Part shown: piece by piece, positions 10,125-60,471 of the stretch
How the letters are laid out: each line of letters starts with the position of its first letter
How positions within the stretch are numbered: the stretch's first letter is position 1
Origin: an uncultured Chloroflexia bacterium
GTDB lineage: Bacteria; Chloroflexota; Limnocylindria; Limnocylindrales; CSP1-4
NCBI GenBank assembly: GCA_963752475.1
Contig: CAVVYR010000005.1
Coordinates: 1 to 64,000 of the forward strand
Reading direction: 5' to 3'
DNA length: 64,000 nt
The notes under the pieces: model-generated
Databases searched by the model: none
What the model was told of the DNA's origin: nothing
What the model saw: only the letters and a program-made list of their open reading frames with translations
Program-made: the position numbers and the translations under genes

Positions 10125-10832
10125 ATGGGGACAAGGTCGATTCGGGTATTCGTGATCGGAATGGCTGTCACGCTGCCGCTCGTCGCGGGCAGCGTGCTGC
10201 TCTCGGCGTACGCAGGCGCGAGCACGTTATTGACCGCCTCGGCGGGGATCGGGCTCGTCGCAGCCACGTTCGGGCTCGCGGCGGGTATCGTTGCGGTCCT
10301 CGTCGCTTGCAGTGCCGCGGTCGTGCTCGAGATGGCTCCAGCCGGAGAGTTCCATGTCGAGCGGCCCAAGGACGCGCTGTCACTGACCCTCTTCGCCGCC
10401 AACGGCCTGGTGGTCGCCGCCATCGGATCGCTGCTGCAGGGCCATCGGTCGCGGCAAGCCTCGCCGGCGGCTTGCGAGGAGGCACCACAGGGACGGATGA
10501 CGGCGATCGACCACGTTCAGCCAACCGCGCTTTCCCGGACGCTGGCCCCGCTCAGCCTCAGGCGGGAGCCGCTCACCGAACGTGAGACTGAAGTGCTGAC
10601 ACTCCTGGCGACAGGGATGTCCAATGCCGAGATCGGCGCCGAGCTGTTCATATCGGTCAACACGGTCAAGTCCCACCTGAAGAACGTCTACGGCAAGCTC
10701 GGCGTAAGCAACCGCACCGGGGCACTGTCGACAGCCCTGGAGCTCGGGGTCATCCCTCCCGACCATGCGGCCGAGCGACGCTCGGGCGGGCAGGCGCGCC
10801 CCCTCGTCGGCGAGGACGACCTGGCAGCCTAG
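10125..10832 (+). CDS. Membrane-anchored LuxR-family regulator (DUF4118-like TM region plus HTH)
   Basis: Several hydrophobic helices followed by LTERETEVLTLLATGMSNAEIGAELFISVNTVKSHLKNVYGKLGVSNR. Confidence 0.85.
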   Translation: MGTRSIRVFVIGMAVTLPLVAGSVLLSAYAGASTLLTASAGIGLVAATFGLAAGIVAVLVACSAAVVLEMAPAGEFHVERPKDALSLTLFAANGLVVAAIGSLLQGHRSRQASPAACEEAPQGRMTAIDHVQPTALSRTLAPLSLRREPLTERETEVLTLLATGMSNAEIGAELFISVNTVKSHLKNVYGKLGVSNRTGALSTALELGVIPPDHAAERRSGGQARPLVGEDDLAA

Positions 10833-15534: not shown

Positions 15535-15603
15535 GTAGTCGCCTTTCTGTCTCGGAAGCGTGGCCTCGAAGGGCCAGGGGGAACAGGGAAGCCCGCCGCC
15601 CGT

Positions 15604-16506
15604 CTAGGGTTCGGGAGCGATGACCACGGTGGTCTTGGCGTAACGGGCGATCTTCTCGCCGAAGGGGTCGTGTCCCTGGTGCTGCCGGGGCACGATGATG
15701 AGATCCGGATCGATGCGCTCAGCGGCTTGCAGAGCCGCATCGACGGGATGTCCGCCCTCCGACTCGAGCGTCACGTCGGATCCCTGTTCTGCGAGCTCCT
15801 CCGCGAGTTCGTCGAGGCTGGCCGCAGCCTCGTCACGCAGCATCGCCGTGACCTGCCGCACGAGCTCAGGATCCTCCTGGTCGATGCCGGTCGGATTGCC
15901 CAGGAGTCCGAGCAGCGTGATCCGGATGTCGCGCGCCCAGCCGGTGGAGAGCAGCCAGCTCGTGGCGCTTTTCCCGGCCGCCGTCCCGTCGAGCAGGACG
16001 AGGATGCTCCGGGGCAGCGGACCCTCATCCACGTGCGGTTCCCGCGCGACCAGCACCGGCCGATCGGTCTCACCGATGACCTGCCGCGAGACGCTGCCCA
16101 GCAGGAACTGCGAGACACGTGAGCGTCCCCGGTGGCCGATGGCCACGAGGTCGGGCGCTTCGGAGCGGATCGCGGCAACGATCTCATCGGCCACCTCGCC
16201 CTGACGCAGGAGCGTGCTCGTCAGGAAGCCGGCCTGCTGTAACCGGTGTCCCGCCTCGTTGGCCGTCCTCTCCGCAGCGATCACCTCCGTCCGGCGGAGC
16301 TGCTCCATGATCGTGCGTCCCGAGCTCAGGTCGCCCTCCCGCAGCCAACCGAGACGGGAAACGCCATAGGTCGCGACGCACAGGACGGCGACCTGGCACG
16401 GATGATCCCACCGCAATCGCGACACCCACGCTTCGGCGTTGAGCGCCTCGTCCGAGGCATCGGTCGCGAGCAGCACACGGAAAGGCCGCTCCATCGTCTG
16501 GGCCAT
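15604..16506 (-). CDS. Universal stress protein, paralogue of 9062-9994
   Basis: PFRVLLATD...GHRGRS...LLGSVS. Confidence 0.9.
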   Translation of the reverse strand: MAQTMERPFRVLLATDASDEALNAEAWVSRLRWDHPCQVAVLCVATYGVSRLGWLREGDLSSGRTIMEQLRRTEVIAAERTANEAGHRLQQAGFLTSTLLRQGEVADEIVAAIRSEAPDLVAIGHRGRSRVSQFLLGSVSRQVIGETDRPVLVAREPHVDEGPLPRSILVLLDGTAAGKSATSWLLSTGWARDIRITLLGLLGNPTGIDQEDPELVRQVTAMLRDEAAASLDELAEELAEQGSDVTLESEGGHPVDAALQAAERIDPDLIIVPRQHQGHDPFGEKIARYAKTTVVIAPEP

Positions 16507-16598
16507 CGTCAGTCTCCAAGCTCGGCACTTCAGTCCCCCGACGGCCTCTCCGTCGGCGACTTCGACGTCGAGGCTATCTGCGAGTGACACGGGTGCCC

Positions 16599-16614
16599 TC
16601 ACCCAGAGGGGTGA
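16599..16614. promoter_or_regulatory. LuxR/NarL-type box
   Basis: TCACCC-AGAG-GGGTGA upstream of the USP-ATPase unit. Confidence 0.65.
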
Positions 16615-16680
16615 TTTGATCTCCAAAGCCAGGCTCAGCGAGGTTCGCCTGCTTCGACGAGTCGCCCGTGGACGGGTGAC

Positions 16681-17583
16681 TCAGCTGCTGTTCGAGGGCA
16701 CCACGAGGACCGATACGGTGAGGTACCGGGTCACCTTCTCGGCCAATGGATAGCGGCCTGGCGTGTGCTCCGGCCGGGCTAGGACGACGAGGTCAGCCTG
16801 GGACCGTTCGGCCATGTCACGGCACTCACCCAGCGGGTGGCCGTGTCGCACCTCGACCGAGACGTCCAGGGCCTTCGAAGCGATGTGCTCGGCGAGGTCG
16901 TCAAGGACATGCCGGGCAGTGCGTTGCGCCTCCGTCATGATCGCCCCGACCGGGCCGCCGTCGGCCTCCATCCCGGAGCCCGCGGATCCAAGTAGGCCGA
17001 GCAAGATCACGCGGGAGCGGTCCAGCCAGCCATGACGATCGAGCCATGCGACGGCTGCTCGTGCCTTGGTCTCGGGATCGACGACCAGCACGACCCGCTG
17101 CGGCAGTGCCTCGACGAGGGCCCCGGCCTGACGAGCGACGAGAGCGGGGGCGGTCGTGTACCTCGCGACCTGTGCCGAGACACTGCCGAGGAGCATCGGC
17201 TGGATATCGGATCGACCACGGGAGCCGATGGCGACCAGCGAGGGACGCAGCTCCCTGACTCGCGCCAGGAGCTCGATCGCCGGTTCGCCGTACCTGGTGG
17301 TGGCGGAGCTGGCGAATCCGGCGTCGATCAATCGAGCAGCGGCTCCCTCGCCGATGCCCGAGGCCTCCGCCAGGTGCTCCTCGTGCAGGTTCTCCACCAG
17401 CACGTCGACCTGTGGGTCGCCCGGCCGCTGCAGCCAACCCGGGAGCGTCGCACTGACGTCGGCCACGGAAAGCACCTCGACGTGCGGCTTGGTGCGCCAG
17501 GTCAGGCCCTGGATCCAGACCTCGGGCCAATGCGCAGCCAGCGAGCCGTCGGTCGCGAGCAGGACATGGTGCTGGCTGTCCAT
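16681..17583 (-). CDS. Universal stress protein
   Basis: VLLATDGS...GSRGRS...LLGSVS. Confidence 0.9.
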   Translation of the reverse strand: MDSQHHVLLATDGSLAAHWPEVWIQGLTWRTKPHVEVLSVADVSATLPGWLQRPGDPQVDVLVENLHEEHLAEASGIGEGAAARLIDAGFASSATTRYGEPAIELLARVRELRPSLVAIGSRGRSDIQPMLLGSVSAQVARYTTAPALVARQAGALVEALPQRVVLVVDPETKARAAVAWLDRHGWLDRSRVILLGLLGSAGSGMEADGGPVGAIMTEAQRTARHVLDDLAEHIASKALDVSVEVRHGHPLGECRDMAERSQADLVVLARPEHTPGRYPLAEKVTRYLTVSVLVVPSNSS

Positions 17584-29587: not shown

Positions 29588-31450
29588 GTGGCATCGAACC
29601 CGATCTTGCCGTCTGTCGGATCAGCCAACGCGAAGCTCCTGGCCGAGCTTCCGTTCGACGACACCCAGGACTTCGAGGACGCCCGACGCGGCCTCATCGG
29701 TCGGCTCGAGCCATGCGTCGTCCACGACGCCGACGGTCGAGTGGTCTGGGACAACGAGTCCTACCGTGCCTTCCTGGATGGCCCGGCGCCCGACAGCGCC
29801 AACCCCAGCCTCTGGCGCCAGTCGCGACTGAATGCCATCGACGGCCTGTTCGAGGTCGTCCCCGGCATCTACCAGGCGCGTGGCTTCGATCTCTCGAACA
29901 TCACCTTCGTCGAGGGCGAGACCGGCGTGCTCGTCATCGACCCCCTCGTCTCGTCCGAGACCGCCGCCGCGGCGCTCGCGCTCTACCGGCGGCATCGCGG
30001 TGATCGACCCGTGGTCGGCGTCATCTACAGCCACAGCCACGTCGACCACTTCGGCGGCGTCAAGGGCGTGACCAGCCAGGAGGACGTGGACGCTGGCCGC
30101 TGCGTCGTGCTCGCTCCTGACGGGTTCATGGAGCACGCCGCCTCGGAGAACGTGTACGCGGGGACGGCGATGATGCGGCGCTCCGGCTACATGTTCGGGG
30201 CCGCCCTGGAGCGCGGACCGGCGGGGCAGATCGGGACCGGCCTGGGCCAGACGAACTCGACCGGCACCGTGACGCTCATCGCACCCACCGACACGATCAC
30301 GACCACGGGCGAGACGCGCGTGGTCGACGGCATCCGGATGGAGTTCCAGAACACGCCCGGTACCGAGGCGCCGGCGGAGATGAACACGCTCTTCCCCGAC
30401 CACGGCGCACTCTGGATGGCCGAGAACGCCACCCACGTGCTCCACAACATCCTGACCATCCGGGGCGCGCTCGTGCGCGACGCTCGTGTCTGGGCTCGCT
30501 ACCTGACCGAGGCCATCGACCTCTACGGCGAGCGGATGGACGTGGTGTTCGCCTCCCACCACTGGCCCACCTGGGGTCGCGAGCGGGCCATCAGGTTCCT
30601 GTCGGAGCAGCGTGACCTCTATGCGTACCTCCACGACCAGACCCTCCGCATGCTCAATCAGGGTCTCAATGGTGCCGAGATCGCCGAGGCCATCCAGATG
30701 CCACCAGCCCTCGAGGAAACCTGGAACACCCGCGGCTACTACGGCTCGGTGAGCCACAACGTGAAAGCCATCTACCAGCGCTACATGGGCTGGTACGACG
30801 GCAACCCCGCGCGGCTGTGGCAGCACACGCCAGAGGAGCAGGCGAAGCGATATGTCGCCGCCATGGGTGGCATCGATGACGTCGTCGCCCAGGCGCGGAC
30901 GGCCTACGACTCGGGCGACCTTCGGTGGGCGGCGGAGTTGCTGGACCGCGCCATCTTCGCCGATCCCGGGCACGCGGAAGCGAGGGCGCTCCAGGCCGAC
31001 ACCTTCGAGCAACTCGCCTTCGGGGCAGAGAACGGGTCCTGGCGCAATGCGTACCTCGCGGGCGCCACGGAACTCCGCCAAGGCCCCTTCGGGACGCCGG
31101 TCACGACCTCACCGGACCTGCTGCGCGCCCTCACCCCCGAGATGATCCTCGATGCCATCGCCATCCGGGTCAACGGGCCCAAGGCCTGGGACGAGCAGTT
31201 GTCCATCGGCATCACCCTGGCGGACCTGGGCCGGTCCTGGCGCCTCGACCTGCACAACGGCGTCCTCATCCATCGCGAGACTGGGGTCGAAGGGGCGGAT
31301 GTCGTACTTCGGCTGCCCGCGGCCGGGCTGCCGAGCCTGCTCGCGGGGCAGATGGACGGCATCGACATCGACGGCGACCAGGGTGTCCTGGGGCGGCTAA
31401 TGGCAGTCCTCGACGAGCCTGACCCTGATTTCGCCATCGTGACGCCATAG
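29588..31450 (+). CDS. Alkyl sulfatase (SdsA1-like; MBL fold, dimerisation and SCP2 domains)
   Basis: ANPSLWRQS, HSHVDHFGG, ASHHWP and RGYYGSVSHN. Confidence 0.95.
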   Translation: MASNPILPSVGSANAKLLAELPFDDTQDFEDARRGLIGRLEPCVVHDADGRVVWDNESYRAFLDGPAPDSANPSLWRQSRLNAIDGLFEVVPGIYQARGFDLSNITFVEGETGVLVIDPLVSSETAAAALALYRRHRGDRPVVGVIYSHSHVDHFGGVKGVTSQEDVDAGRCVVLAPDGFMEHAASENVYAGTAMMRRSGYMFGAALERGPAGQIGTGLGQTNSTGTVTLIAPTDTITTTGETRVVDGIRMEFQNTPGTEAPAEMNTLFPDHGALWMAENATHVLHNILTIRGALVRDARVWARYLTEAIDLYGERMDVVFASHHWPTWGRERAIRFLSEQRDLYAYLHDQTLRMLNQGLNGAEIAEAIQMPPALEETWNTRGYYGSVSHNVKAIYQRYMGWYDGNPARLWQHTPEEQAKRYVAAMGGIDDVVAQARTAYDSGDLRWAAELLDRAIFADPGHAEARALQADTFEQLAFGAENGSWRNAYLAGATELRQGPFGTPVTTSPDLLRALTPEMILDAIAIRVNGPKAWDEQLSIGITLADLGRSWRLDLHNGVLIHRETGVEGADVVLRLPAAGLPSLLAGQMDGIDIDGDQGVLGRLMAVLDEPDPDFAIVTP

Positions 31451-37536: not shown

Positions 37537-37819
37537 ATGGTCGGAGGCGCTGGTCGATACATCGGCGTCGCGGAGGCACCCGGCCATGTCGATCGTGGCG
37601 CTACCTGACAGAGGCGTACAGCACGCACGCGCGGATCGTGGAACGCGATCACGACCCGACGCAGCACTACCGGCGCAGCTCGAGGGCGGAGGTCACACAG
37701 GTGGGTCTGGTCGGGCGCTCCACGAACTAGGCACCGGACCCTTGCAGGCCAAGCCTGTCACTGGGCGTCCGGAGTCCCCCTCGATGAGATGACCGCTGCG
37801 CGGCGGACGATGTCCAGAG

Positions 37820-38119
37820 GGGATCGAAACGCTCTGCCGCACCTACCGAGTCAAGCGTTTGGCTGTCTTCGGTTCGGCCGTCCGGGAGGACTTCGACCCT
37901 GGCCGGAGCGATGTCGACTTCCTCGTCGAGTTCGAGTCGGACCCCGACCTCAACACCTTCCATGCGTACATGGGCCTGCGTCGCGAGCTGTCGCGTCTAG
38001 TGGAGCGTCCAGTCGACCTGGTCATGCCTTCTGGTGTACGCAACCGCTACTTCGCGCAGGAGATCGAGGCGACTCGCGAGCCCCTGTATGGCGCGGGATC
38101 CGAGAGCGCTCTCGGCTGA
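37820..38119 (+). CDS. Minimal nucleotidyltransferase (MntA-type antitoxin); 5' end uncertain or truncated
   Basis: IETLCRTYRVKRLAVFGSAVREDFDPGRSDVDFLVEF; in-frame stop at 37790 with no standard start before the conserved region. Confidence 0.8.
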   Translation, partial: GIETLCRTYRVKRLAVFGSAVREDFDPGRSDVDFLVEFESDPDLNTFHAYMGLRRELSRLVERPVDLVMPSGVRNRYFAQEIEATREPLYGAGSESALG

Positions 38120-38456
38120 CGTTCAGGATGCCGCACGATCCATCGAACACTTCCGGAGGGACCTCGACCTGGATGGCTTCCGTGCCGACGAGTTGGTGCG
38201 TGCCGCCGTCGAGCGCAAGTTCGAAATCATCGGTGAGGCGCTGAATCGGCTCAGCCGCGAGGAACCAAGACTCGCCGAGCGCATCCCGGACGTCGCGCGC
38301 ATCGTCGGGTTTCGCAACGTCCTCGCCCACGGCTATGACGTCGTCGACGACGAGGTCGTGTGGGACGCGATCACGACCGATCTGCCTGTGCTCTCCAGGA
38401 CGGTGGGTACGCTGCTCGCGGAACTCGAGGCCGAGGAAGGGCCGGGACGCGGGTGA
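38088..38456 (+). CDS. HEPN/DUF86 ribonuclease toxin (HepT-type)
   Basis: AVERKFEIIGEA and FRNVLAHGY (RX4H motif). Confidence 0.9.
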   Translation: MARDPRALSADVQDAARSIEHFRRDLDLDGFRADELVRAAVERKFEIIGEALNRLSREEPRLAERIPDVARIVGFRNVLAHGYDVVDDEVVWDAITTDLPVLSRTVGTLLAELEAEEGPGRG

Positions 38457-38495: not shown

Positions 38496-38511
38496 TGGTC
38501 GGGGCGAGAGG
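38496..38511 (-). repeat. tRNA-Pro 3'-end copy 1 (putative att core)
   Basis: TGGTCGGGGCGAGAGG is the reverse complement of CCTCTCGCCCCGACCA. Confidence 0.7.
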
Positions 38512-38752
38512 GCTAGAGCCTTCACACCGTCACCATCTTTGATCATCCCCGTCACGAACGTCCCGAGCCGCATCGACTGCGACTGGAAGACCGCGTGACG
38601 AAAGGCCCGATGCTGTCGCGAAGACGGGTCCCCGGCCCGAAGACCGAGAGACCCGTTTCGGTGACTGTGGTCGCTACCCGCCTAGTGGACTCGAGTTGCA
38701 GGCCCCTCGTGGGAAGGACCTCACCACGATCTGTCGAGGCAGCGCGATCGGG

Positions 38753-39281
38753 TTACTCGGTGGGCGCAGGCGGCTCGGGGAACGGTGGCGCCTCACCGAC
38801 GAAGACCGCACCCTCGACAGGGAACGGCCCGTCGCCGCCCGAGTCCACGATGAGGTAGAGGGTGTGCCCTTCGTAGTCTCCCTCGCCGGTGAGCACGACG
38901 GTGCTGATCTCGGTGTCATCCACCTCATCGCCGCCGTGAACGAGGGCGGTGCCCTGACCGGACCAGGCGCCACCGTCGTTCTCGATGCGCCATCCGAGCG
39001 TCCGGAACATGGTGATCGTGCTCCTGGACCCGACGGCGCTCCGCGTAGCAGATCCGGACGAGTACGCGATAGCACCAGGCGTCGAAGCGGCCCGGGTCGC
39101 GCAGCCGTGGCAGTTCACGCCAGATGGTGACGATGGCCTGCTGCGCCGACTCCTCGGCGAGGTCCATATCGCGGAGCACGCCGTACGCCATCTTGCGCAA
39201 GCGGATGGCGATGCTCTCAGCGATGCTGGCGAACGCCTGTTGGTCGCCCTGTTGTGCCCGGACGATGAGGTCCACATCCAT
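38753..39281 (-). pseudogene. Internally deleted ECF sigma / partner pair
   Basis: Sigma region 2 with no region 4, joined near 39000 to a C-terminus similar to that of 21905-22705. Confidence 0.75.
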
Positions 39282-39479
39282 CGGTATGCATGTCGTCCCC
39301 CCGACGGCCTCCCGTGTGTCTCTGGGCGCCTCGTCGGCGCGTGGTCACAGCGTAAGGGGGCGAAGTCTGCCGCAAGGTTCCGTTTTCACGGTCAGGTACC
39401 AGGCTGACGGTTCGATGGGCGCTCATCGGCGAGTTCACCGAGACTCAGGTACAGCGACACAAGCCCAGGTAGGTGGGAC

Positions 39480-39495
39480 TGGTCGGGGCGAGAGG
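39480..39495 (-). repeat. tRNA-Pro 3'-end copy 2 (putative att core)
   Basis: Identical 16-mer TGGTCGGGGCGAGAGG. Confidence 0.7.
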
Positions 39496-40334
39496 TCTCG
39501 GCCCTTCACTATCCCGATACTCGTCAAGGTGGCATCAAGGGCCCATGCCATCGGGTCAAACGAACCGAGTGCCTAGACCGAGGACCTGCTGTCTACGACA
39601 CAGGTAACGAGCAGTTCTCCGCGTCATGCGAGGTGCCGCAACGTGTGCGGCTCCAGCCCGGTTCGTCCGCCCTTGGTCACCGGGGTCCGGCTTGTAGCGT
39701 GCGCTTGGCTACACAGCCCTCTTGTTGGGCCAGCGCCTGTGCGAGCCGCTTGCCGGCTGCCGGGATGCTCGCTCCGCGAGGACAGTCACTGTCTGCCTGT
39801 GCGGTAGCCCGTGGCCGTAGGGTTCCGGCGTCGCGTAGCGGAGCGACCTCGCCGGACTCGCTACGGACGGCCGTGCGGGTGCCACGGCCGGAAGTCGGAT
39901 CGGCGGTTTGGGTAGCGTTGCCGTCGAGTCAAAGAACCGCACATCGGTCGCCCTGAGGTGATTGAAGAAGGGGTCTGCCGCGATGTAGTCAGCCCCGGTC
40001 ACGCTCTTCAACCACCTATGCTCGCGAGCCTCCGAGGCGAGCAGCCAATGCTCGCGCGTGAGCTGCTCTGCGGCCATGTGCCCTTCCCAGACCGAGGTGT
40101 CGACCCCGCTGAGGTTCCCGCCTTCCAGAGCGTCGAGCGCGCAGAGCGCGACCACATCGTCATCGAGCCTCGACACCGCTCGCCCGGTCCCACTAGAGAG
40201 GACGCCCAGAAAGGCGCTGCGCCCGTAAACACTCTACAGACCCTTGACGTGCAGGAAACGATAGGCTAGAGTTCTTGGACAAACCATGTACACCAGCACC
40301 ATTCTGTACAGTGCTTGAAGGGAGCCTGAACCAA

Positions 40335-40757
40335 ATGACTCGACCTCGGCTGTCCACTTCCATGTCAGTCGTGCGCCGTCCACGCGCCATCTTCGCCTCG
40401 ATCCTGTCATTGACCATCCTCGCGGTGGCCCTGCCCGCCAGCGCGGTCGCGGCCCCGGAACGAGAGCGGGACGGGTTCTGCCGCGCAGGAAGCGAGTGGA
40501 ACCTCTACGTAGGTCGCGAAGACGGAAGCCGGCTCGAGGTCGATTTCGAAGTCGACAGCGAACGACGCGGTGAGAGGTGGCGTGTCGTCCTCAAGAACGA
40601 CGGCAAGGTGTTCCACCGCAGCACGCGTCGGACGAACCAAGCCGGTGAGTTCGACATCGAGCGCTACACGCGCGATGGCAGTGGCAAGGACAAGATCGTC
40701 GCACGTGCCAAGAGCCTCAGGACGGGCGAGGTGTGTCGGGCCGTCATCCGCATCTAG
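40335..40757 (+). CDS. Secreted hypothetical protein
   Basis: Signal peptide; LEVDFEVDS...WRVVL...GEVC with a Cys pair; start uncertain. Confidence 0.7.
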   Translation: MTRPRLSTSMSVVRRPRAIFASILSLTILAVALPASAVAAPERERDGFCRAGSEWNLYVGREDGSRLEVDFEVDSERRGERWRVVLKNDGKVFHRSTRRTNQAGEFDIERYTRDGSGKDKIVARAKSLRTGEVCRAVIRI

Positions 40758-40949
40758 GCTGACCTGCCGCGAAAACGGACATTAGTCCCTCACATCTATG
40801 ACACGTCGGCCCCGCGGCCCCTTGAAGCCGCGGGGCTGCCAGGGACGCCTGGACCGCCGGGGCCCATCAGTGGCCCCGGCGGTCTATTCCATGGCCGGAC
40901 GCCTAGTCAGCAGTCGGCAGCGAGCCGCTCCCGGAGTCCGCATGGCGAT

Positions 40950-41299
40950 GGACCACCCACCGCAAGGATCTGATGGGAGCGCACGAGTGGGCCCTCCATG
41001 GGTGGAAGGAGGGCGCCGCCCACCGCTTCTTCGGGCCGTCCAACGCCACGGACCTCTGGCACGTCAAGAAGGTCAGCCCCAACGCCATGGTCCATCTCAC
41101 CGAGAAGCCGGTGGAGCTGGCACGACGGGCCATCGAGTACAGCTCGCTGTCAGGTGAGGTCGTCCTCGACCCCTTCGCCGGCTCGGGCTCAACGCTCGTC
41201 GCCGCCGAGCAGACGGGGCGGCGGGCGTACCTCATGGAGCTCGACCCGCCGTACTGCGACGTCATCGTCGAACGCTGGAAGGCGTTCAGCGGGCAGTAG
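40950..41299 (+). pseudogene. C-terminal fragment of a phage-type N4/N6 DNA methyltransferase
   Basis: H.TEKPVEL, VLDPFAGSGST and MELDPPYCDVIVERW; the catalytic DPPY region of the N-terminal half is absent. Confidence 0.85.
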
Positions 41300-41321
41300 G
41301 CCCGGCGTGGGTAGGTCGCAG

Positions 41322-41477
41322 CTAGCGCTGGCGCTCGAAGAGGGCCCCGGCGAGCCCGCCGACGACGAGGCCCACCACGACCGCCAGGATCAGCTGGCCG
41401 AGGAGGAGGCCGATGATCAATCCGAGGGCCGCACCCACCCCGGCTCCCGATCCAGACCAGCGCATCGCGTCGGACAT
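41322..41477 (-). CDS. Small Gly-rich membrane protein
   Basis: GAAGGAG RBS; two hydrophobic helices. Confidence 0.55.
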   Translation of the reverse strand: MSDAMRWSGSGAGVGAALGLIIGLLLGQLILAVVVGLVVGGLAGALFERQR

Positions 41478-41620
41478 CTCGCACTCTCCTTCGGTCCACG
41501 GGTGCCCATGTCCCACCCATGGCCAGGGTCGCGCCTCAGCACTAGCCTGGCGCATCCCGGGACGCCGGCGGCAGGGTCTTCGGTCATCTCGCCCGGGGCC
41601 TTCGGACGCGCGGTGCTGGG

Positions 41621-41947
41621 ATGACCAACGGAACGGGCCCCACCTCTCGGCTCGAGCCCTACGACCAGGGCTACCGCGACGGCTGGCACGACATCCACAT
41701 CGCCCACCGCCAGCGCCGCACGCGACGACGAGCGCGGAGCACCGAGTACGCGCTCGGCCACCAGGACGGCCGCATCGACGGCGCGGAGTGGCCCGAGTAC
41801 CCCGAGTGGTGGCCGGACTTCGCGCAGGCGCCGAGGGTCGCCCACGATCCTGCGTCTCCCGCACGTTTCGAGGCCTCCGACGCCCGAGGCGCCGCAGAAG
41901 ACGCCGACCGGGTATCCGGGCCCACCGCAACCGCGGCGGCCGCCTGA
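41621..41947 (+). CDS. Phage hypothetical protein
   Basis: TGATG overlap with the terminase small subunit. Confidence 0.55.
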   Translation: MTNGTGPTSRLEPYDQGYRDGWHDIHIAHRQRRTRRRARSTEYALGHQDGRIDGAEWPEYPEWWPDFAQAPRVAHDPASPARFEASDARGAAEDADRVSGPTATAAAA

Positions 41948-42441
41948 TGGGCCGCAGGGGTCCCACCCGCGCGCCCGACGCCGCCAAGCTCCGCAAGGGC
42001 GAGACGCGTCCGAGCCGCCTCAACGGGATGGAGCCGCTGCCTCGGCATGCGGCACCGCGGATGCCGCGTGGCATGGACGAGGCCGCACAGCGGGTGTGGC
42101 GGCGGATCGTGCGCGAGATGGCGGGTAGTGGCGTCATCGAGGCCGCCGACACCGACATCCTGCGCTGCTACTGCGAGGCGGTCGCGGCCTACGAGCGCGA
42201 CGTGCCCCTGCTCATGCGGGGCGGCCCGGTCATCACCGGCAGTCGTGGCCGCGAGCTCGTGCGCAACCCGATGCACCAGATCGTGCGCGACGACCGCCAC
42301 GCCATCCGGCTCCTGGCGCGCGAGCTGGGCCTGTCGCCCGCGGCCAGGGCGAGCCTGCGCGTCGCACCCGATGCCGAGGCGCCCGACATCGACGCGGTCC
42401 TCGGACCCCCGCCACGGCTCCGGGTGGTCGGTGATGCCTGA
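41947..42441 (+). CDS. Phage terminase small subunit (P27 family)
   Basis: MGRRGP, VWRRIV, D...L..YCE, NP and ELGLSPAAR. Confidence 0.88.
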   Translation: MGRRGPTRAPDAAKLRKGETRPSRLNGMEPLPRHAAPRMPRGMDEAAQRVWRRIVREMAGSGVIEAADTDILRCYCEAVAAYERDVPLLMRGGPVITGSRGRELVRNPMHQIVRDDRHAIRLLARELGLSPAARASLRVAPDAEAPDIDAVLGPPPRLRVVGDA

Positions 42442-42444
42442 CCG

Positions 42445-43080
42445 ATGGTCCCCGATGAGCGCACCGGGGGTCCCCGCTTCGCGGCCTTCTGCGAGCGCTT
42501 CGTGCGCCATACGAAGGGACGCTGGTCGGGCCAGCCCTTCGTGCTCGAGCCTTGGCAACGCGAGTTCTGGTGGGAGGCGCTCGAGGTCGACCCTGCCACC
42601 GCCCTGCGGGTGTACACCGAGGTCGGGCTGGGGCTGCCTCGGAAGAACGGGAAGTCGGGCGTCGCCTCGGCGGCGGCCCATTACTTCCTCTCCGCCAACG
42701 GCGAGGCCGAGCCCGAGGTGTACGTCGCCGCGGCCGCGCGGGGCCAGGCGGGCATCGTCCTCGGCCAGGCCCGGCGCATGGCTCTCCAGAGCCCACCGCT
42801 GCGCCGGCTGCTGCGGGTCCAGACGCACCTGCTCGAGAACCACCGCAACGGCGGCGTCATGCGCGCCCTGTCGGCCGACGCCGCGCTCCAGCACGGGCTC
42901 AACCCCAGCGCCAACATCATCGACGAGCTCCACGCCCACCGCGACGGTGCCCTGCTCACTGCGCTCACGACCGGCACGCTCGCACGCGAGCAGCCCTTCA
43001 CCTGGTGGATCACGACCGCAGGGGCCTGTGATCCGTTCCTCGGCGAGATGTACGCGATCCCCGAGACCGGTGCCGGGTGA
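42445..43080 (+). pseudogene. Terminase large subunit, N-terminal ATPase only
   Basis: LEPWQ, PRKNGKS (Walker A), IIDELH (Walker B) and ITTAG, then an abrupt end with no nuclease domain. Confidence 0.88.
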
Positions 43081-43226
43081 TCCTGCAGCTGCTCGCCTAC
43101 GGGGAGGCCGCCCTCATCGCGCTGCAGGGCAAACATGTGGCCTACCCCATGCTGGCCATCGACCGCTACGCGGTCCTCCACGTCACTGCGGTCGGCTTCG
43201 TCGCGCAGGTCATCACAGTCCGACGC

Positions 43227-43268
43227 TTGACCGCGCGGATCGACTTGCGTACGCTATGCCGTACGTAC
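43227..43268 (+). promoter_or_regulatory. Sigma70 promoter with CGTACG operator palindromes
   Basis: TTGACC-N17-TACGCT; GCGTACGC (43247) and GTACGTAC (43261). Confidence 0.65.
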
Positions 43269-43288
43269 TAGGCACGCGAAGGGGCCCG

Positions 43289-43531
43289 ATGGCAACCGTC
43301 AGCACAACCGAGGCGAGGAAGGACCTCTACCGCCTCGTCGACCAGGTCCAGGACACACACGAGCCGATCCAGATCAATGGCAAGCGTGGCAACGCGGTGC
43401 TCGTGAGTGAAGCTGACTGGCAGGCCTTGCAGGAGACGCTCTTCTTGGTCTCGATCCCCGGCATGCGTGAGTCCATCCTCGAGGGCATGGCAACCCCTCC
43501 GGACGAGCTCGAGGATGAGCCCGGCTGGTGA
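43289..43531 (+). CDS. yefM: Phd/YefM antitoxin
   Basis: TEARKDLYRLVD...GKRGNAVLVSE.DW..LQETL.L.SIPGMRESI. Confidence 0.92.
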   Translation: MATVSTTEARKDLYRLVDQVQDTHEPIQINGKRGNAVLVSEADWQALQETLFLVSIPGMRESILEGMATPPDELEDEPGW

Positions 43532-43791
43532 GATGGCGCCTCGTCTACACACGCGCGGCGCAAAAGGATGCGAGGCGACTCGCCGCTGCAGGGCTCCGGG
43601 ACCGGGCGCAGGCCCTGCTCGAGCTACTGGCCGATGACCCCTTTCGGAGCCCTCCGCCCTTCGAGAAGCTCGTAGGTGACCTCGCCGGCGCCTACTCACG
43701 ACGGATCAACATCCAGCACCGGCTGGTCTACCAGGTCCTCCCGCAGGAACGGATCGTCAAGGTCCTACGGATGTGGTCGCACTACGAGTAG
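43528..43791 (+). CDS. yoeB: Txe/YoeB toxin
   Basis: EKLVGDLAGAYSRRINIQHRLVYQ...MWSHYE. Confidence 0.93.
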   Translation: MRWRLVYTRAAQKDARRLAAAGLRDRAQALLELLADDPFRSPPPFEKLVGDLAGAYSRRINIQHRLVYQVLPQERIVKVLRMWSHYE

Positions 43792-43807
43792 GAATGAGCT
43801 AGAAGGG

Positions 43808-43823
43808 TGGTCGGGGCGAGAGG
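43808..43823 (-). repeat. tRNA-Pro 3'-end copy 3 (putative att core)
   Basis: Identical 16-mer; the reading frame through it ends in a TGATG overlap with mini-LuxR copy 1. Confidence 0.7.
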
Positions 43824-43927
43824 GGTGGCGCCAGCTTGACCCACCTGCGGTTCCGGCCGCGATTCGTGCTCGAGAACCGGACTCCGGCGGCGAGATCGTG
43901 GCCCGCTGCGTACCGGAAGGCCGGCTG

Positions 43928-44158
43928 ATGGCGAGGCAGCGGCCGACCCGCCGGCAGCTCGAGGTCCTGCGGGCGTACATCCGGGTGGGGTCAGTGGCGG
44001 CCGCCGCCTACGAGCTCGGCATCAGCGAGACGACGGTGCGTCAGCATCTCTCGGGGTTGTACCGGCGGACGGGGTGCTTGAACGCGGCGCAGGCGGCATA
44101 CTGGCTGGGCAGCGGCCGGATCGGTCTCGATGTGGCCGGGTCCGACCTGACCATCTGA
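43928..44158 (+). CDS. Stand-alone LuxR-type HTH protein, copy 1
   Basis: PTRRQLEVL...AAYELGISETTVRQHLSGLYRRTG. Confidence 0.85.
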   Translation: MARQRPTRRQLEVLRAYIRVGSVAAAAYELGISETTVRQHLSGLYRRTGCLNAAQAAYWLGSGRIGLDVAGSDLTI

Positions 44159-44201
44159 TGCACCGCCTGGTCGTGCTGGGTAGTCCGAGCCTTGGAGCAC
44201 G

Positions 44202-45488: not shown

Positions 45489-45575
45489 AGCCGGGCGCGG
45501 ACCAACCACCCTCGTCCGCGTGCCCATCCGCGGAAGGGCCAGGTGGTTGGCCTCGACACGCGAGAGGTCGGCGTC

Positions 45576-45887
45576 ATGAGCGATGCCAGGCGAAGGCCTA
45601 CGCGCCGTCAGCTCGAGGTCCTGCGCGCCTACATCCGGGCCGGCTCCGTGGTGGCGGCGGCCTACGAGCTCGGCATCAGCGAGACGACCGTGCGGCAGCA
45701 TCTCTCAGGCCTGTACCGGCGGACGGGCTGCGTGAACGCTGCGCAAGCGGTGTACTGGCTGGGGTCGGGACAGTTGGGTGGAGGGCACATCGACGCAGCC
45801 ATCCACGGCGTCGGCAACGTGCCCTCCGCGAGGACCGAGGATCCATCGAGAAATCCCGGCCGCGCAGGGGCTGGCCTCAGGGGGTGA
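45576..45887 (+). CDS. Stand-alone LuxR-type HTH protein, copy 2
   Basis: Same ~57-aa core; ATGA overlap with an orphan upstream frame. Confidence 0.8.
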   Translation: MSDARRRPTRRQLEVLRAYIRAGSVVAAAYELGISETTVRQHLSGLYRRTGCVNAAQAVYWLGSGQLGGGHIDAAIHGVGNVPSARTEDPSRNPGRAGAGLRG

Positions 45888-47709
45888 CGATGGCGAAGTC
45901 CGGGTCGGGAGCTTCGAGCACCGCGGTAAGTCGCCCGAGCACACCGGTATCACCCTCGGTGGTCATGCCTTCGGTCTTGCCGGCGAGCAGGCCCACCAGC
46001 ACCGCCCTCGGCAGACGGAGCACGAGGTCGGCACCGTCCGCTGGTGCCTGACGGTGTACCAGCACACCGTTGCGCAGGTCCAGCCGATACGACTCTCCCG
46101 CGTCGGTGATCTCGACACCGATCGAGAGGCGCTCGCCCCAAGCCCTTGGGCCGTCGACGCGGATGGCGATGGCATCGAAGACCTGCTGCGGCGAGAGGGC
46201 CGCGAACATGTCCGGCGACGCGGCCTCGGTGGGCGTGCCGAAGTTGCCCTTGCGCAGCTCGGTGGCACCCGCGAGGTAGGCGCTCCGCCACGTGCCGTTC
46301 TCCGAGCCGAAGCCGAGCTGCTCGAAAGTGTCCGCCTGGAGCGCTGACGCGGCCGCATGGGTCGGTTCGGTGAACAGGACGTGGTTGAGGATCTCGGCCG
46401 CCCAGCGGTAGTCGGTCGCGTCGAAGGCCTCCTGCGCCACGGCCACGACCTTGTCGGCCCCGCCCATGGCCTCGACGTAGCGCTTGCCGGCTTCCTCGGG
46501 CGTGTGCTGCCAGAGGTGCGCGGGATTCCCGTCATACCAGCCCATGTAGCGCTGGTAGATGGCCTTCACGTTGTGGCTCACCGAGCCGTAGTAGCCACGG
46601 GCGTGCCAGGCGTTCTCGAGCGCCGGCGGCATGACGATGGTCTCGGCGATCTCACTGCCCGTGAGCCCGGCGTTGAGCATGCGCAGCGTCTGGTCGTGCA
46701 GGTACGCATAGAGGTCACGCTGCAGTGAGAGGAACCCGACGGCCCGCTCCTGTCCCCACGTCGGCCAGTGGTGGGAGGCGAAGACGACCTCCATCCGCTC
46801 GCCGAAGCGGTCGATGGCCTCGGTCAGGTAGCGCGACCAGATCCTCGGGTCGCGGACCAGCGCTCCGCGGATGGTGAGGATGTTGTGCAGGTTGTGGGTC
46901 GCGTTCTCGGCCATGCACAGCGCCTGACGGTCGGGGAAGAGGACGTTCATCTCGGCGGGCGCCTCGGTCCCAGGCGTCAGCTGGAACTCCATCCGGATGC
47001 CGTCGACCTCCCGGGTCTCGCCGGTGGCGGTGATCGAGTCGGTGGGGATGATGAGCGTGACTGTTCCGGTCGAAGTCGTCTGGCCTAGGCCGGCACCGAT
47101 CTGACCGGTGGCGTCCCGTTGGAGGGCGGCACCGTACATGTAGCCCGCGCGCCGGCCCATGGCCGTGCCGGCATAGACGTTCTCGGCGACCGCGTGCTCG
47201 ACGAAGTGCTCGGGCGCGATGATCACACACTTCCCGGCGTCGACGTCGGCCTGCGTGGTGACGCCCTTCACGCCACCGAAGTGGTCGACATGGCTATGCG
47301 TGTAGATGACTCCGACGACCGGCCGATCGCCACGATGCTCGCGGTAGAGCGCCAGCGCAGCCCTTGCGGTCTCGGTGCTGATGAGCGGATCGATGACGAT
47401 GACGCCGGTGTCGCCCTCGATGAAGCTGATGTTGGAGAGGTCCATGCCCCGCACCTGGTAGACACCGGGGACGACCTCGAAGAGCCCGTCCATGGCCACG
47501 AGCTGCGACTGTCGCCAGAGGCTGGGGTTGGCCGTGTCGGGCGCAGGCCCCTCGAGGAAGCCGTAGCTCGAGTTGTCCCATACGACGCGCCCGTCATCGG
47601 CCCTGACGACGCAGGGCTCCAAGCGTCCGAGGAGCCCTCGCCTCGCGTCCTCGAAGTCGGCGGTGTCGTCGAAGGGCAGTGCGGTCGCGGGGGACGATCG
47701 GTCAGCCAT
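45877..47709 (-). CDS. Alkyl sulfatase (SdsA1-like), paralogue of 29588-31450
   Basis: Same motifs; AAGGAG RBS before the ATG at 47709. Confidence 0.95.
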   Translation of the reverse strand: MADRSSPATALPFDDTADFEDARRGLLGRLEPCVVRADDGRVVWDNSSYGFLEGPAPDTANPSLWRQSQLVAMDGLFEVVPGVYQVRGMDLSNISFIEGDTGVIVIDPLISTETARAALALYREHRGDRPVVGVIYTHSHVDHFGGVKGVTTQADVDAGKCVIIAPEHFVEHAVAENVYAGTAMGRRAGYMYGAALQRDATGQIGAGLGQTTSTGTVTLIIPTDSITATGETREVDGIRMEFQLTPGTEAPAEMNVLFPDRQALCMAENATHNLHNILTIRGALVRDPRIWSRYLTEAIDRFGERMEVVFASHHWPTWGQERAVGFLSLQRDLYAYLHDQTLRMLNAGLTGSEIAETIVMPPALENAWHARGYYGSVSHNVKAIYQRYMGWYDGNPAHLWQHTPEEAGKRYVEAMGGADKVVAVAQEAFDATDYRWAAEILNHVLFTEPTHAAASALQADTFEQLGFGSENGTWRSAYLAGATELRKGNFGTPTEAASPDMFAALSPQQVFDAIAIRVDGPRAWGERLSIGVEITDAGESYRLDLRNGVLVHRQAPADGADLVLRLPRAVLVGLLAGKTEGMTTEGDTGVLGRLTAVLEAPDPDFAIVTP

Positions 47710-48190
47710 CGGGCGGGTCTCCTTGTGGTGCGCTTGGACTCCGGCCCCCGGGTCCGGGGGCCGCTGCGGTCGATGCCGAGCGATGCACCTCGCTCGCGCG
47801 AAGCTCGGCCAACAGTTCCTGCCCGCGCCGATGGCCGTGCTCGAGATCGGCACCGACGTGCGAATCCCTGGACAGGACGTTCGCGGGACCGAGACGCTCG
47901 AGGAACTCGGTCGGATCGAGTGTCTCACGAGCGACAGCGCTGATGCCCACAAGGACCAGGGCACTCCCATGCGCGGCGAGCTTCGCGTGGTACTTGCCCA
48001 GCTCCTTGAGCATCGTGCTCGAGAAGGAGTCCAGCACGCCGACGTCGAGGACGAGCATCCCGGGGTGGGCAGGGTCGGCCATCGGGAGTCGCTCGGCGAC
48101 GGTCGGGACATCGGCGAAGAAGTCGGGGCCGGCATAGCGCACGAGAAGGGGTCGGTCCGGGGGGAGGGTCGAGGGGATGTCCGTGCTCAT
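47702..48190 (-). pseudogene. STAS-like C-terminal remnant of a SulP transporter
   Basis: Y.GPDFFA...L.LVG...LG..NV resembles the C-terminus of the SulP at 33050; no TM domain. Confidence 0.6.
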
Positions 48191-48740
48191 CGCGGTCGAG
48201 GACCATCTCCATACCGCCGGGGTCGTCGTCCTCTTCGCCGATGAACGCCTCCTCTCCTCGGACCCGGGTTCCTGGGACCAGTTCATCCGCGAGGCCCACG
48301 AGGCCGAGGCGTACAGCCGGAAGCTCTCCAAGCGTGTGAGCGAGGGCTACGCCGCCAAGCGGAGGAGGCTCGGCATCCCCGGCGGCAGCAAGATGCCCTA
48401 CGGTCTCATCCGGGAGGGCAAGCCCTCGGTCCTGCGGGTGGACGAGGCGCAGGCTGCCGTCGTCGTGAAGGCCTACCAGCTCGCGGCCGCCGGGTCCACC
48501 GACTGGGAGGTGGACGCCCAGACCGGGCTCGCCAAGACCCACGTGTCCGAGGTCCTCGCCAACCCCATCTACGCCGGCCGGCTGCGCACCGGGGAGGTGG
48601 CAGCCATCGCCCCGATCGTCGACCCCTCGCTGTGGTCGACCGTCCAGACCCGACGGGAACGCCGAAGGACCAGGACGCCGGGGCGCATCGTGAAAGGCCG
48701 GTACGCCCTGCGCCTCTGCTGTGCGAGCTGCGGGAAGCGA
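48183..48740 (+). pseudogene. Large serine recombinase, internal fragment
   Basis: E.YSRKLSKRV.EG (helix E), PYG, VLANPIYAG, PIVD..LW..VQ and LCCASCG (zinc-ribbon start); no catalytic N-terminus. Confidence 0.85.
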
Positions 48741-48741
48741 A

Positions 48742-48943
48742 GGGGCGACCGACGCGTCGGCAGCTCGAGGTCCTGCGGGCCTACATCTCCGCAGGGTCCG
48801 TGGCGGCCGCCGCGTACGAGCTCGGCATCAGCGAGACGACGGTGCGACAGCATCTTTCGGGGTTGTATCGGCGGACGGGCTGCCTGAACGCGGCGCAGGC
48901 GGCGTACTGGCTGGGAGCGGCGATGAGCGGGTCACCACGCTGA
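48742..48943 (+). pseudogene. Stand-alone LuxR-type HTH, copy 3 (start lost, abuts the recombinase fragment)
   Basis: Same core sequence. Confidence 0.8.
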
Positions 48944-59697: not shown

Positions 59698-59887
59698 CCG
59701 TGATCCACCGTCGGAGTACCGCTGGGCTCGCGGGGTCTCGGCGGTCCTGCTCATCGCGGTGGTCGTCCTCGTCGTGGTCCTCGACGTCATCGTCGAGGGC
59801 TATGACGTGAGCCCGCCGGTGCTCGTGCCGCTGCTCCTGACCGCGGCTGGGCTGCTCTCGGTCGACCTGCCGAGGGTGCGCGGCTGA
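59687..59887 (+). CDS. Small two-TM phage protein (holin-like)
   Basis: Two hydrophobic helices; TGATG coupling to the HNH gene. Confidence 0.55.
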   Translation: MGDDRDPPSEYRWARGVSAVLLIAVVVLVVVLDVIVEGYDVSPPVLVPLLLTAAGLLSVDLPRVRG

Positions 59888-60471
59888 TGGCGACGTTCGA
59901 GCGGACCGGACCCCTACGGCTCGAGCGACAGCTCGACGGCTCGGCCACCGGGGCGTTCCTCGGGCGCTTCGCCCACCTGGTCGAGGTGGGTCCCGCCTGC
60001 TGGGTATGGACCGGCTCTCGCACGCGCTACCGCGAAGGCGAAGGGTATGGCCGTGTGAGCATCCGTGGGCGGATGGTGCTCGCTCACCGAGCCATCTACG
60101 AGGCCCTCGTGGGCCCCATCCCCGCGGGCCTGCAGATCGACAACCTCTGCCGCAACCGGCTCTGCGTCCGACCGGACCACCTCGAGCCCGTCACACCAGC
60201 CGAGAACATGCGGCGGCGAGTGGCCGCCAACGGACCGGCCACGCACTGCAAGCGCGGCCACTCCCTCGCGGACGCGTACCCACGGGGATCGTCGCGCCGA
60301 TGTCGGACCTGCGCCCGCGCGGCCTGGCAGCGGGCGAACGCGAAGCAGGCGGCATCGCGCGAGCCCCGCAGCACGTGTCGCAACGGCCTCCACCCGTACA
60401 CGGCCGGTGGCTGTCCCGAATGCAGTCGTGCCCGCTCGCTCCGCTGGTGGCGCCGCCAGCAGGCGGCCTGA
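59887..60471 (+). CDS. HNH endonuclease (phage type)
   Basis: CWVWTG, GYG, AHR..YE...GPIP, LCRNRLCVRPDHLEPVT..EN and THCKRGH; the usual DHLC reads DNLC. Confidence 0.88.
   Translation: MATFERTGPLRLERQLDGSATGAFLGRFAHLVEVGPACWVWTGSRTRYREGEGYGRVSIRGRMVLAHRAIYEALVGPIPAGLQIDNLCRNRLCVRPDHLEPVTPAENMRRRVAANGPATHCKRGHSLADAYPRGSSRRCRTCARAAWQRANAKQAASREPRSTCRNGLHPYTAGGCPECSRARSLRWWRRQQAA

Follow-up and report, generated by a model that had tools for sequence, protein, structure and literature searches.

Probable attachment-site scars of stacked serine-integrase phages downstream of a tRNA-Pro(CGG) gene in an uncultured Chloroflexia bacterium

Large serine integrases, such as those of PhiC31, Bxb1, TP901-1 and A118/LI, are widely used genome-engineering tools. 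The classical enzymes recombine only a phage attachment site (attP) with a bacterial attachment site (attB), and the sites of serine integrases are usually hard to predict because the cores shared by attP and attB are very short. We analyzed a 64,000-nucleotide stretch of DNA from an uncultured Chloroflexia bacterium (the window) that carries three exact copies of a 16-mer matching the 3' end of a proline tRNA gene. These copies are probably scars left by temperate phages that use a large serine integrase. The putative attP/attB pair can here be read from genomes, with a 16-bp core that lies in a conserved tRNA gene.

Several described systems share parts of this arrangement. BPs-type mycobacteriophages, which have a tyrosine integrase and a tRNA target, carry attP in the 3' end of the repressor gene, and the tail that integration removes is a degradation tag. 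Accretion of cis-mobilizable elements and integrative and conjugative elements (CIME/ICE accretion) in streptococci involves tyrosine integrases able to act on attL and attR, the two junctions of an integrated element. The arrays described below are similar in that repeated attachment-site cores bound both intact elements and decayed elements that lack an integrase, and differ in that the enzymes of CIME/ICE accretion are tyrosine integrases.

The SSV1-type archaeal tyrosine integrases (PMC8371274) and those of Riemerella RAP44-like phages (PMC12169736) have attP within the integrase gene and a tRNA target. In the portions of those reports considered here, the gene is split or truncated at a site within its body or its 5' end; the present enzyme is a serine integrase, in which all conserved residues stay together and what differs is confined to the stop codon and a non-conserved extension. 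A survey of 29 mycobacterial attB sites, in the portion considered, records the use of tRNA or transfer-messenger RNA (tmRNA) genes among tyrosine systems only. The original prediction for this locus likewise remarked that tRNA targeting is mostly known for tyrosine recombinases. That remark needs qualification, because integration of elements with a serine recombinase has already been predicted at tRNA-Glu, tRNA-Phe and tRNA-Pro genes for Thermotogota group 1 proviruses (10.1101/2020.11.07.368316) and at tRNA-Met for Paracoccus phage vB_PamS_Pami6 (PMC6536676). The relevant passages of these two reports mention neither an overlap of the integrase open reading frame (ORF) with the att core or the tRNA, nor tandem stacking. 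A literature search that covered articles apart from their supplements, most of them in part, found no serine integrase whose ORF spans attP or ends antisense in its tRNA target.

The 16-mer, TGGTCGGGGCGAGAGG, occurs on the forward strand of the window at 38496, 39480 and 43808. The window holds no fourth match even when up to 2 mismatches are allowed; the chance expectation is 0.15, and three or more matches were obtained in 0/100 shuffles. The window comprises bases 1-64000 of a 71,911-bp contig (CAVVYR010000005.1, here C5) from a metagenome-assembled genome (MAG; G000) that is 89% complete with an estimated contamination of 5.8%, and every genome compared below is also a MAG. Six copies are present in the whole of G000, the additional three being at C5 68712, C5 71768 and C32 16385. 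The copies at C5 71768 and C32 16385 each form the 3' end of an intact tRNA-Pro(CGG) gene on the minus strand. ARAGORN locates these genes at C5 71768-71844, outside the window, and at C32 16385-16461; inside the window the same program detects none. The 16-mer corresponds, as reverse complement, to the final 16 nt of tRNA-Pro(CGG), that is, to the 3' strand of the T-stem, the 3' strand of the acceptor stem, the discriminator and CCA. The tRNA-Pro(GGG) gene on contig C14 has only the first 12 nt in common with the 16-mer. The original prediction had read the repeat as a tRNA-Pro 3' end and had expected an intact minus-strand tRNA-Pro to the right on the contig; the match proves exact for tRNA-Pro(CGG), and the gene is where it was expected.

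Altogether, C5 carries five exact cores on one strand, the rightmost being the end of the tRNA gene, and a decayed sixth core at 37708. The flanks of cores 1, 2, 3/4 and 5 differ on at least one side. This arrangement agrees with the earlier proposal that the copies mark junctions of tandemly integrated elements. The junctions in the window, with their proposed identities, are as follows.

37657..37720, + strand: integrase 3'-end remnant (...AALPAQLEGGGHTGG...) with a decayed core (TGGTCGGG, divergent thereafter); no recognisable junction of the array lies farther left
38496..38511, + strand: core copy 1 (exact match), apparent distal-type junction of a decayed element
39480..39495, + strand: core copy 2 (exact match)
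43808..43823, + strand: core copy 3 (exact match), apparent left end of an A-type (LuxR-bearing) phage-derived element
43824..43927, + strand: putative attP P' arm and spacer (the tail of the original prediction), with ACCCACC at +31..+37 from the core start, then GGAAGG, then cTGAtg leading into LuxR

Behind copies 1, 2 and 3, the frame that encodes GRGER continues for 33, 31 and 39 codons and ends in DCDWKTA, NEPSA and YRKAG, respectively, each followed by a stop codon. CCTTCAC lies at the same offset (+7 after the core) behind copies 1 and 2, and the TGA that closes the tail of core 3 overlaps the ATG of a gene for a 76-amino-acid GerE/LuxR helix-turn-helix (HTH) protein. All of these details are as originally described. 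Open frames of at least 31-39 codons begin at 57-63% of window positions in this DNA, which is 68% guanine plus cytosine; because such frames are at chance level, the length of the window tails is by itself uninformative. The three window tails were also considered as genes and rejected as such: a TAG three codons before core 3 closes the frame, the genes to the left encode HepT and YoeB, and ORF length is at chance.

The window does contain part of a candidate integrase gene.

48177..48743, + strand: large serine recombinase fragment (PF07508, 22.9-23.9 bits; cut-off 21.1)

The fragment begins late in the catalytic domain and continues through the alpha-E helix and the recombinase domain to the first CxxC; the N-terminal Ser domain and all sequence past the start of the zinc ribbon are missing, and the fragment is fused to the third of four mini-LuxR paralogs. 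It has full-length relatives in the same genus, to which it is 82-93% identical, and it is 78% identical to residues 102-302 of P0003, an intact integrase of 501 amino acids. In the first five regions fetched, the 16-mer stands at the end of the recombinase gene and is read through in the GRGER frame. P0003 was used as a query against one genome per species, the only information on the core in this query being the last residues of the protein itself. Among the 30 loci found through integrase homology alone, in MAGs of Chloroflexota, Limnocylindrales and uncultured Chloroflexia, 26 contain an integrase gene with the exact 16-mer at its 3' end, and in each of these at least 98 codons before the core are free of stops in the GRGER frame. 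The four loci without the 16-mer are two contigs that end inside the gene and two short fragments. The prediction that the att core lies in the 3' end of related large serine recombinases is therefore upheld, and a second lineage, described below, extends it.

What follows the core varies. In 13 of the 26 loci, the core belongs to an intact, convergent tRNA-Pro(CGG) gene, whose 3' end it forms, and the integrase of ~500 amino acids ends in FGRGERI at a TGA within the T-loop sequence ATTTGA. Other sequence lies behind the core in the remaining 13: a window-type arm, a tRNA-imitating arm, another arm or the end of the contig. The window-type arm (GG.AGCGCCAGCTTG.CCCACC...), followed by a mini-LuxR gene, is found in L032, L036 and L043. 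Thus, the order of core, tail, TGATG and LuxR that was predicted to follow a recombinase does stand directly behind an integrase in three loci, but the cores in the window have no recombinase beside them. A tRNA-imitating arm (ATTTGAACCTCCCGGTCCC...) is found in L018, L021 and L026, where the junction has no tRNA and the short end (GRGERI or S, then stop) is kept.

P0003 matches the catalytic domain PF00239 (E 5.9e-11) with the motif W-F-R-E-S-T-A-G-Q, and it matches phrog_95 'integrase' (4.8e-36). Its score for the recombinase domain PF07508, 19.5 bits, is just under the cut-off of 21.1, which the window fragment exceeds. A profile made from nine integrases matches the catalytic domains of PhiC31, TP901-1 and 3g13 in the PDB; a phmmer search with P0003 singly against PDB sequences gave no match, and P0003 has no match to PF13408 (zinc ribbon). 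C282 and C285 are invariant in the nine sequences. An AlphaFold2 model of P0003 from the nine-sequence alignment, poor overall, has strands at 290-297 and two long helices at 373-414 (predicted local distance difference test, pLDDT, about 87). With a resolvase domain bearing R-E-S-T-x-x-Q and a recombinase domain, and with possible counterparts of the CxxC motifs and the two long helices, the family resembles the integrases of PhiC31, Bxb1, TP901-1 and A118/LI. All conserved integrase residues, GRGER included, are on the tRNA-proximal side of the junction, and the ORF is stopped in the T-loop. An SSV1-type partition of the gene is therefore not seen, and the earlier description of these loci as split integrases cannot stand.

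A divergent serine integrase, 38% identical, is encoded at about 267294-268895 of G008:C3 (L052 9294-10895). Its gene crosses the core in the LVGARG frame, and no stop interrupts the antisense ORF along the whole tRNA-Pro gene or in about 20 codons past it.

A free-phage form is also represented. L089, a 41-kb viral contig from IMG/VR, has in order YqaJ, RecT, the integrase, the core, a 38-codon tail, TGATG, an SprT-like gene, a methylase and the large terminase, and it has no tRNA. The integrase of L089 separates recombination genes from packaging genes, which is the unintegrated attP arrangement. L090, a Joint Genome Institute (JGI) contig, carries the end of the integrase, the core with an A-type arm, a 39-codon tail and TGATG. 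The scan of viral contigs yielded one locus only, as did the metagenome pattern scan. Since the integrase frame has no stop before the core, the C-terminus must change with the junction: GRGERI at 13 tRNA junctions versus extensions of 38-40 codons in L089, L090, L036 and L043.

Sequencing runs were compared as Logan contigs only, in which gaps in cover and differences in depth are not evidence. A contig of run X1, the probable source run, joins an integrase 3' end to core 3 and the A-type arm; as contig evidence, this is a hint only. Other joints, 39312>42917 in X2 and 42465>41835 and 45909>46453 in X3, rest on short sides or on other strains and are left uninterpreted. Just past the terminase of L089, at 15087-17265, a DarT-like ORF (a weak match, E 2.1e-4, under the Pfam cut-off) lies beside an ADP-ribosylglycohydrolase gene (E 1.4e-50).

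At attP-like junctions, the 7-mer that spans -8..-2, counted from the core start, is the reverse complement of the one at +31..+37. The pair GGTGGGT/ACCCACC agrees at 7/7 positions in L036 and L043 and at 6/7 in L032 and L056, and the free phage L089 has GGTGAGT/ACTCACC at 7/7; the change from one pair to the other is compensatory. In total, the dyad is kept at 6-7/7 at nine attP-like junctions (L089, L036, L043, L032, L056, L070, L022, L027 and the window-type arms), and it is 1-3/7 at the 12 tRNA junctions tabulated. The left 7-mer doubles as integrase codons for G-G-F or G-E-F, and the center of the dyad falls on core bases 15/16. The co-varying pair is thus what an attP should display, being a short site of ~50 bp with inverted half-sites. 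In this it is like PhiC31-type systems, which have an attP of ~50 bp with imperfect dyad symmetry and an integrase gene at one prophage end. Unlike those systems, the target here is a tRNA 3' end with a 16-bp identity that rebuilds the tRNA, and attP lies within the coding end of the integrase itself. Crossover likely takes place near the right edge of the core, at bases 15/16. If so, the element would supply the last ~15 nt of the tRNA, and the identity would accordingly run from the CCA end to the T-stem. The putative recognition motif of the P arm would consist of the integrase's own codons, for which GGTGGGT/ACCCACC and GGTGAGT/ACTCACC are natural variants.

Coding constraint ends at the core. 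For the 40 codons before GRGER, pairwise differences at codon positions 1/2/3 are 0.23/0.21/0.42 (13 integrases), and for the 21 codons after the core they are 0.31/0.24/0.30 (8 junctions). Among five close relatives, variable columns by codon position number 11/11/12 in the tail versus 8/4/31 in the LuxR gene that follows, which identifies mini-LuxR as a real coding gene. By these measures, the integrase is a constrained protein up to the core, and the conservation beyond the core is at the level of DNA (P' arm and spacing). The tail has no third-position excess of the kind expected of a swapped C-terminal peptide under selection, and the tails, once proposed to be protein, lack a codon-position signature of protein constraint.

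Stacking recurs across the genus. The 16-mer is present in 39 of 49 genomes, with a reversed-pattern control giving 0 in all, and by our own count from the table 18 of the 49 have 2-6 same-strand copies on one contig, some of these being megabase contigs. G008 has a core, a 38.3-kb prophage, a core, a 40.7-kb element and then the tRNA; both stacked elements are complete, and each has its own serine integrase at the tRNA-proximal end. From left to right, the prophage carries mini-LuxR, large terminase, an HK97-type capsid protein, Prim-Pol/AAA_25, a PD-(D/E)XK nuclease and the integrase; the 40.7-kb element carries the 38%-identical LVGARG-frame enzyme. In G000, in G008 and across the genus, same-strand repeats of the tRNA 3' end thus lie downstream of an intact tRNA gene with mobile-element genes between them.

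We consider it probable that these arrays arose by successive integrations of related temperate phages into tRNA-Pro(CGG) by means of large serine integrases, followed by deletion. The phages would be those of this Chloroflexota genus, with attP inside the 3' end of the integrase gene, such that the P arm encodes G-G/E-F and the 16-bp core encodes G-R-G-E-R. Because the core is the antisense of the last 16 nt of the tRNA, integration would rebuild the tRNA gene. Beside the tRNA, the ORF would be stopped by the T-loop TGA (GRGERI, then stop), and in the free phage and at phage-phage tandem junctions it would run 38-40 codons further through the P' arm to a TGATG that leads into the next gene, which is mini-LuxR in the window type. 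The three 16-mers of the window would then be attachment-site cores at phage-distal (attL-type) junctions of at least four decayed elements, arranged head to tail over about 34 kb (C5 37708-71783) downstream of one tRNA-Pro(CGG). Deletions would have removed the window integrases and the structural genes, leaving toxin-antitoxin pairs, cargo genes and att scars. Catalysis of the integrations by the serine recombinase, the place of the crossover and the later loss of the window integrases are inferred. Because no integrase adjoins any of its three cores, the window by itself presents att scars and not split integrase genes.

Several observations weigh against this account. No recombinase lies to the left of any of the three window cores, where the neighbors are HepT, a decayed remnant and YoeB. 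G000, which is 89% complete, has no PF00239 match, and its sole recombinase-domain match is one fragment. At the YoeB junctions at 43808 and 68712, the dyad is 1/7 and there is no integrase-like P arm, and their origin is unexplained; because the P arm is absent, no integrase of this family should act on such a YoeB-core junction. In about half of the loci, the integrase frames extend over only 98-160 codons, an interruption that could reflect decay or errors of long-read assembly. The loci are from related MAGs, and counts of them are not counts of independent events. The model of P0003 is poor (mean pLDDT 60, predicted template modeling score, pTM, 0.31, C-terminus <50). Finally, stacking calls for something further, since recombination by classical serine integrases is confined to attP x attB.

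Arrays of up to six cores are not predicted by a strict attP x attB rule, and stacking in 18/49 genomes is at odds with it. This raises the question of whether the attL of an element with a tRNA-mimic arm can serve as attB. A suggestion based on the arms is that, where the P' arm of an element imitates the T-arm, the element's attL continues to resemble attB and so may permit stacking, and the order in G008, L018, L021 and L026 (A-type integrase, core, tRNA-mimic arm) fits this idea. The phage-phage junctions that are identical to attP (L032, L036 and L043) could have arisen by integration of dimers or by homologous recombination.

The alternative that survives best is that the arrangement is a functional integration-state switch, in which the long-tailed integrase and its coupling to LuxR are selected, and integration alters the activity or stability of the integrase and shuts off or re-wires LuxR. 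The absence of a stop before the core and a C-terminus that follows the junction accord with a switch. So does the layout of the tails. Among 13 distinct core-to-LuxR junctions, seven, including the diverged arm of G008, have the LuxR start in a TGATG whose TGA closes the GRGER frame; L043 keeps TGATG with one extra codon; and in L089 and L090 TGATG precedes a gene other than LuxR. Tails of 38, 39 and 40 codons are all in frame, and GGAAGG, read here as a likely ribosome-binding site, precedes the LuxR ATG. However, the other six junctions lack the TGATG overlap: L032, L046, L055 and L062 have a different tail length or have lost the frame, L021 has a 6-codon tail on a tRNA-mimic arm, and in L064 the tail is still 39 codons long and stops in the same place, with the ATG farther on. 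The coupling of tail and LuxR is only suggestive because the sequences are related by descent and include just two frame-keeping indels. Moreover, the tail lacks protein-level constraint, its first ~25 nt are the P' arm, which accounts for its nucleotide conservation, and the tRNA-mimic arms of L018, L021 and L026 retain the short end without a tRNA. We regard a selected switch as unlikely on this evidence.

BPs-type phages offer a parallel. As in those phages, attP lies in the 3' end of an ORF, integration alters the C-terminus, and the free and integrated forms encode different C-termini; here the gene is that of the integrase, and the tail lacks protein constraint. The claim that integration swaps the C-terminus of the integrase is accordingly correct in relatives as a fact of sequence, but the exchanged tail is unconstrained as protein and some arms keep the short end. 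An integration-state switch with uncoupling of LuxR is plausible but unproven. A wider version is tentative, and we doubt it: an integrase that contains its own attP would be shortened by ~38 residues on integration and cut off from the next gene, thereby serving as a state switch, and T-arm-mimic P' arms would recreate an attB-like site and so stack arrays of 100 kb.

A second alternative is that these are ordinary islands of tyrosine integrases at a tRNA 3' end and that the serine recombinase is a passenger or a resident neighbor. Textbooks treat a 16-bp direct repeat of a tRNA 3' end, combined with tandem accretion, as the mark of tyrosine integrases, and G000 does encode such enzymes, on contigs C14 and C1. 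However, C5 has no match to PF00589, and none of the five PF00589 matches in G008 lies inside the array. In 26 of the 30 loci, the serine integrase meets the core in the same frame each time, the core and its arms are found in a phage genome without a tRNA, and the dyad arms co-vary with integrase codons. This alternative is very improbable.

That the repeats stem from MAG assembly error or segmental duplication is less credible still: a 2,873-bp repeat that is 99.4% identical, a roughly doubled depth of X1 contigs over 42846-44181, the 5.8% contamination and the end of C5 only 67 bp past its tRNA, inside a repeat shared with C32, are set against core flanks that differ on at least one side, like arrays in 18 of 49 genomes of the genus with some on megabase contigs, and X1 contigs that cover cores 1 and 3 with the window flanks.

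If the array was built by phage integrations at the tRNA, the 34-kb patchwork (toxin-antitoxin pairs, four mini-LuxR genes, terminase stumps and metabolic cargo) can be explained as a phage graveyard at one tRNA. The remaining features are as follows.

38034..38456, + strand: HepT-like RNase toxin gene, not a recombinase (PF01934, E 7.8e-22); its stop is 40 nt before core 1
38925-39281: sigma-factor stump in the ~1 kb between cores 1 and 2
39400..39479, + strand: frame-broken decayed remnant, resembling the divergent integrase C-terminus at 71544-71786 (shared GAGTTCACCG...ACAAG)
40960..43823, + strand: copy 1 of a 2,873-bp direct repeat; partner C5 65855-68727 (L001 5855-8727), 99.4% identical by blastn self-comparison
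41947..42441, + strand: small terminase subunit, P27 family (PF05119, E 1.1e-18 on ORF 41413-42441; the start at 41947 was read from the sequence)
42445..43080, + strand: large terminase cut to 211 amino acids, ATPase domain only (PF03354, E 4.5e-18)
43289..43791, + strand: YefM antitoxin and YoeB/ParE-type toxin (PF02604, 4.5e-19; PF06769, 2.5e-09); the toxin stop is 16 nt before core 3
43928..44158, + strand: mini-LuxR/GerE HTH, 76 amino acids, paralog 1 of 4 and the first gene behind the core (PF00196, E 7.8e-08)
45543..45887, + strand: mini-LuxR paralog 2 (PF00196, 9.6e-08), 86% nucleotide identity to paralog 1
48745..48943, + strand: mini-LuxR paralog 3, in a different frame from the recombinase fragment joined to it
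50222..50449, + strand: mini-LuxR paralog 4 (PF00196, 1.2e-05 on ORF 49955-50449), 87% nucleotide identity to paralog 1
59887..60471, + strand: HNH endonuclease (PF13392, 4.4e-14), start of the phage-like right part of a 24.9-kb element
C5 64741-66209: ParB-like/methylase in the right part of the 24.9-kb element

The remnant at the left end of the array (37657-37720) shares 85% identity with C32 16334-16392, immediately beside the second tRNA-Pro(CGG), and its C-terminal motif recurs in intact integrases. The possibility that C5 37657-37707 and the stretch left of the C32 tRNA are native chromosomal flank was rejected; both are an integrase 3' end. In a run X2 contig, tRNA-body sequence follows directly on the flank at 37715; as contig evidence, this too is only a hint. 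The right flank of core 1, GCTAGAGCCTTCAC, loosely imitates the T-arm of the tRNA. The proposed homology of 39400-39479 to the integrase C-terminus that abuts the tRNA was read by eye and is unscored, and it goes no further than a resemblance.

Cores 2 and 3 are 4.3 kb apart, and this interval ends with a methylase stump, the small terminase, the cut large terminase and YefM/YoeB. Both copies of the 2,873-bp repeat stop exactly on the last base of a core (cores 3 and 4) and comprise the C-terminus of a DNA methylase, the small terminase, the truncated large terminase and YefM/YoeB (PF01555, PF05119, PF03354, PF02604, PF06769). A 64-amino-acid ORF lies between the truncated large terminase and YefM/YoeB, and fuller-length relatives of that terminase are found inside element A of G008. 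The same toxin-antitoxin-to-core junction occurs in G001, G009, G339 and G340, and G009 also has the whole YoeB-core-arm-LuxR junction of the window. The toxin-antitoxin modules at 38034-38456, where HepT has a probable partner gene upstream, and at 43289-43791 lie directly against att cores, a placement that fits addiction modules outliving the elements that carried them.

The 24.9-kb element extends from 43824 to C5 68711, past the end of the window, and core 4 follows at 68712. Its cargo includes a CLC channel, an alkyl sulfatase, a pyridoxal phosphate (PLP) decarboxylase and a SulP transporter, in addition to the four mini-LuxR genes (the first at its left end), the serine recombinase fragment, the HNH endonuclease and the ParB-methylase. 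The four mini-LuxR paralogs share 85-90% nucleotide identity and lie within 6.5 kb; their upstream contexts all differ, and in all four similarity begins almost exactly at the start codon. The genes may mark the left ends of four elements that were stacked one after another and whose cores have decayed. No further mini-LuxR copies were found by blastn in the rest of G000. At 48177-48943, the recombinase frame is broken inside the first zinc-ribbon CxxC and passes straight into LuxR paralog 3, which looks like the joint of a deletion that took the C-terminal half of the integrase, the core and the arm. Within the alkyl sulfatase gene (45877-48135, minus strand), 46131-47679 has a 78% identical inverted paralog elsewhere on C5, outside the array, at 29648-31196. 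Many ORFs between the cores have no match in Pfam or PHROGs.

The last 3 kb, from core 4 to the tRNA, contain an extracytoplasmic function (ECF) sigma factor, an HTH protein and a divergent integrase remnant of 83 residues at C5 71544-71786, which reads ...GEFTAQVRRNGRGERI / ...GRGERI into the tRNA (tblastn). Integrase remnants in G000 are located at C5 48180-48785, C5 71544-71786 and C32 16068-16352. The stretch C32 16068-16528 (L002 about 9684-10144) holds the second tRNA-Pro(CGG) and an integrase-3' remnant and has no array. It matches the final 144 bp of C5 at 99.3% identity, and C5 runs out 67 bp past its tRNA. The two tRNA-Pro(CGG) genes may be separate loci, or they may be co-binned strain variants with and without the array. 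The ECF sigma gene beside tRNA-Pro(CGG), at C5 69707-70467 (L001 9707-10467), has a 79% identical paralog at C14 27110-27843, beside tRNA-Pro(GGG); sigma genes seem to travel with, or to sit beside, proline tRNA genes here.

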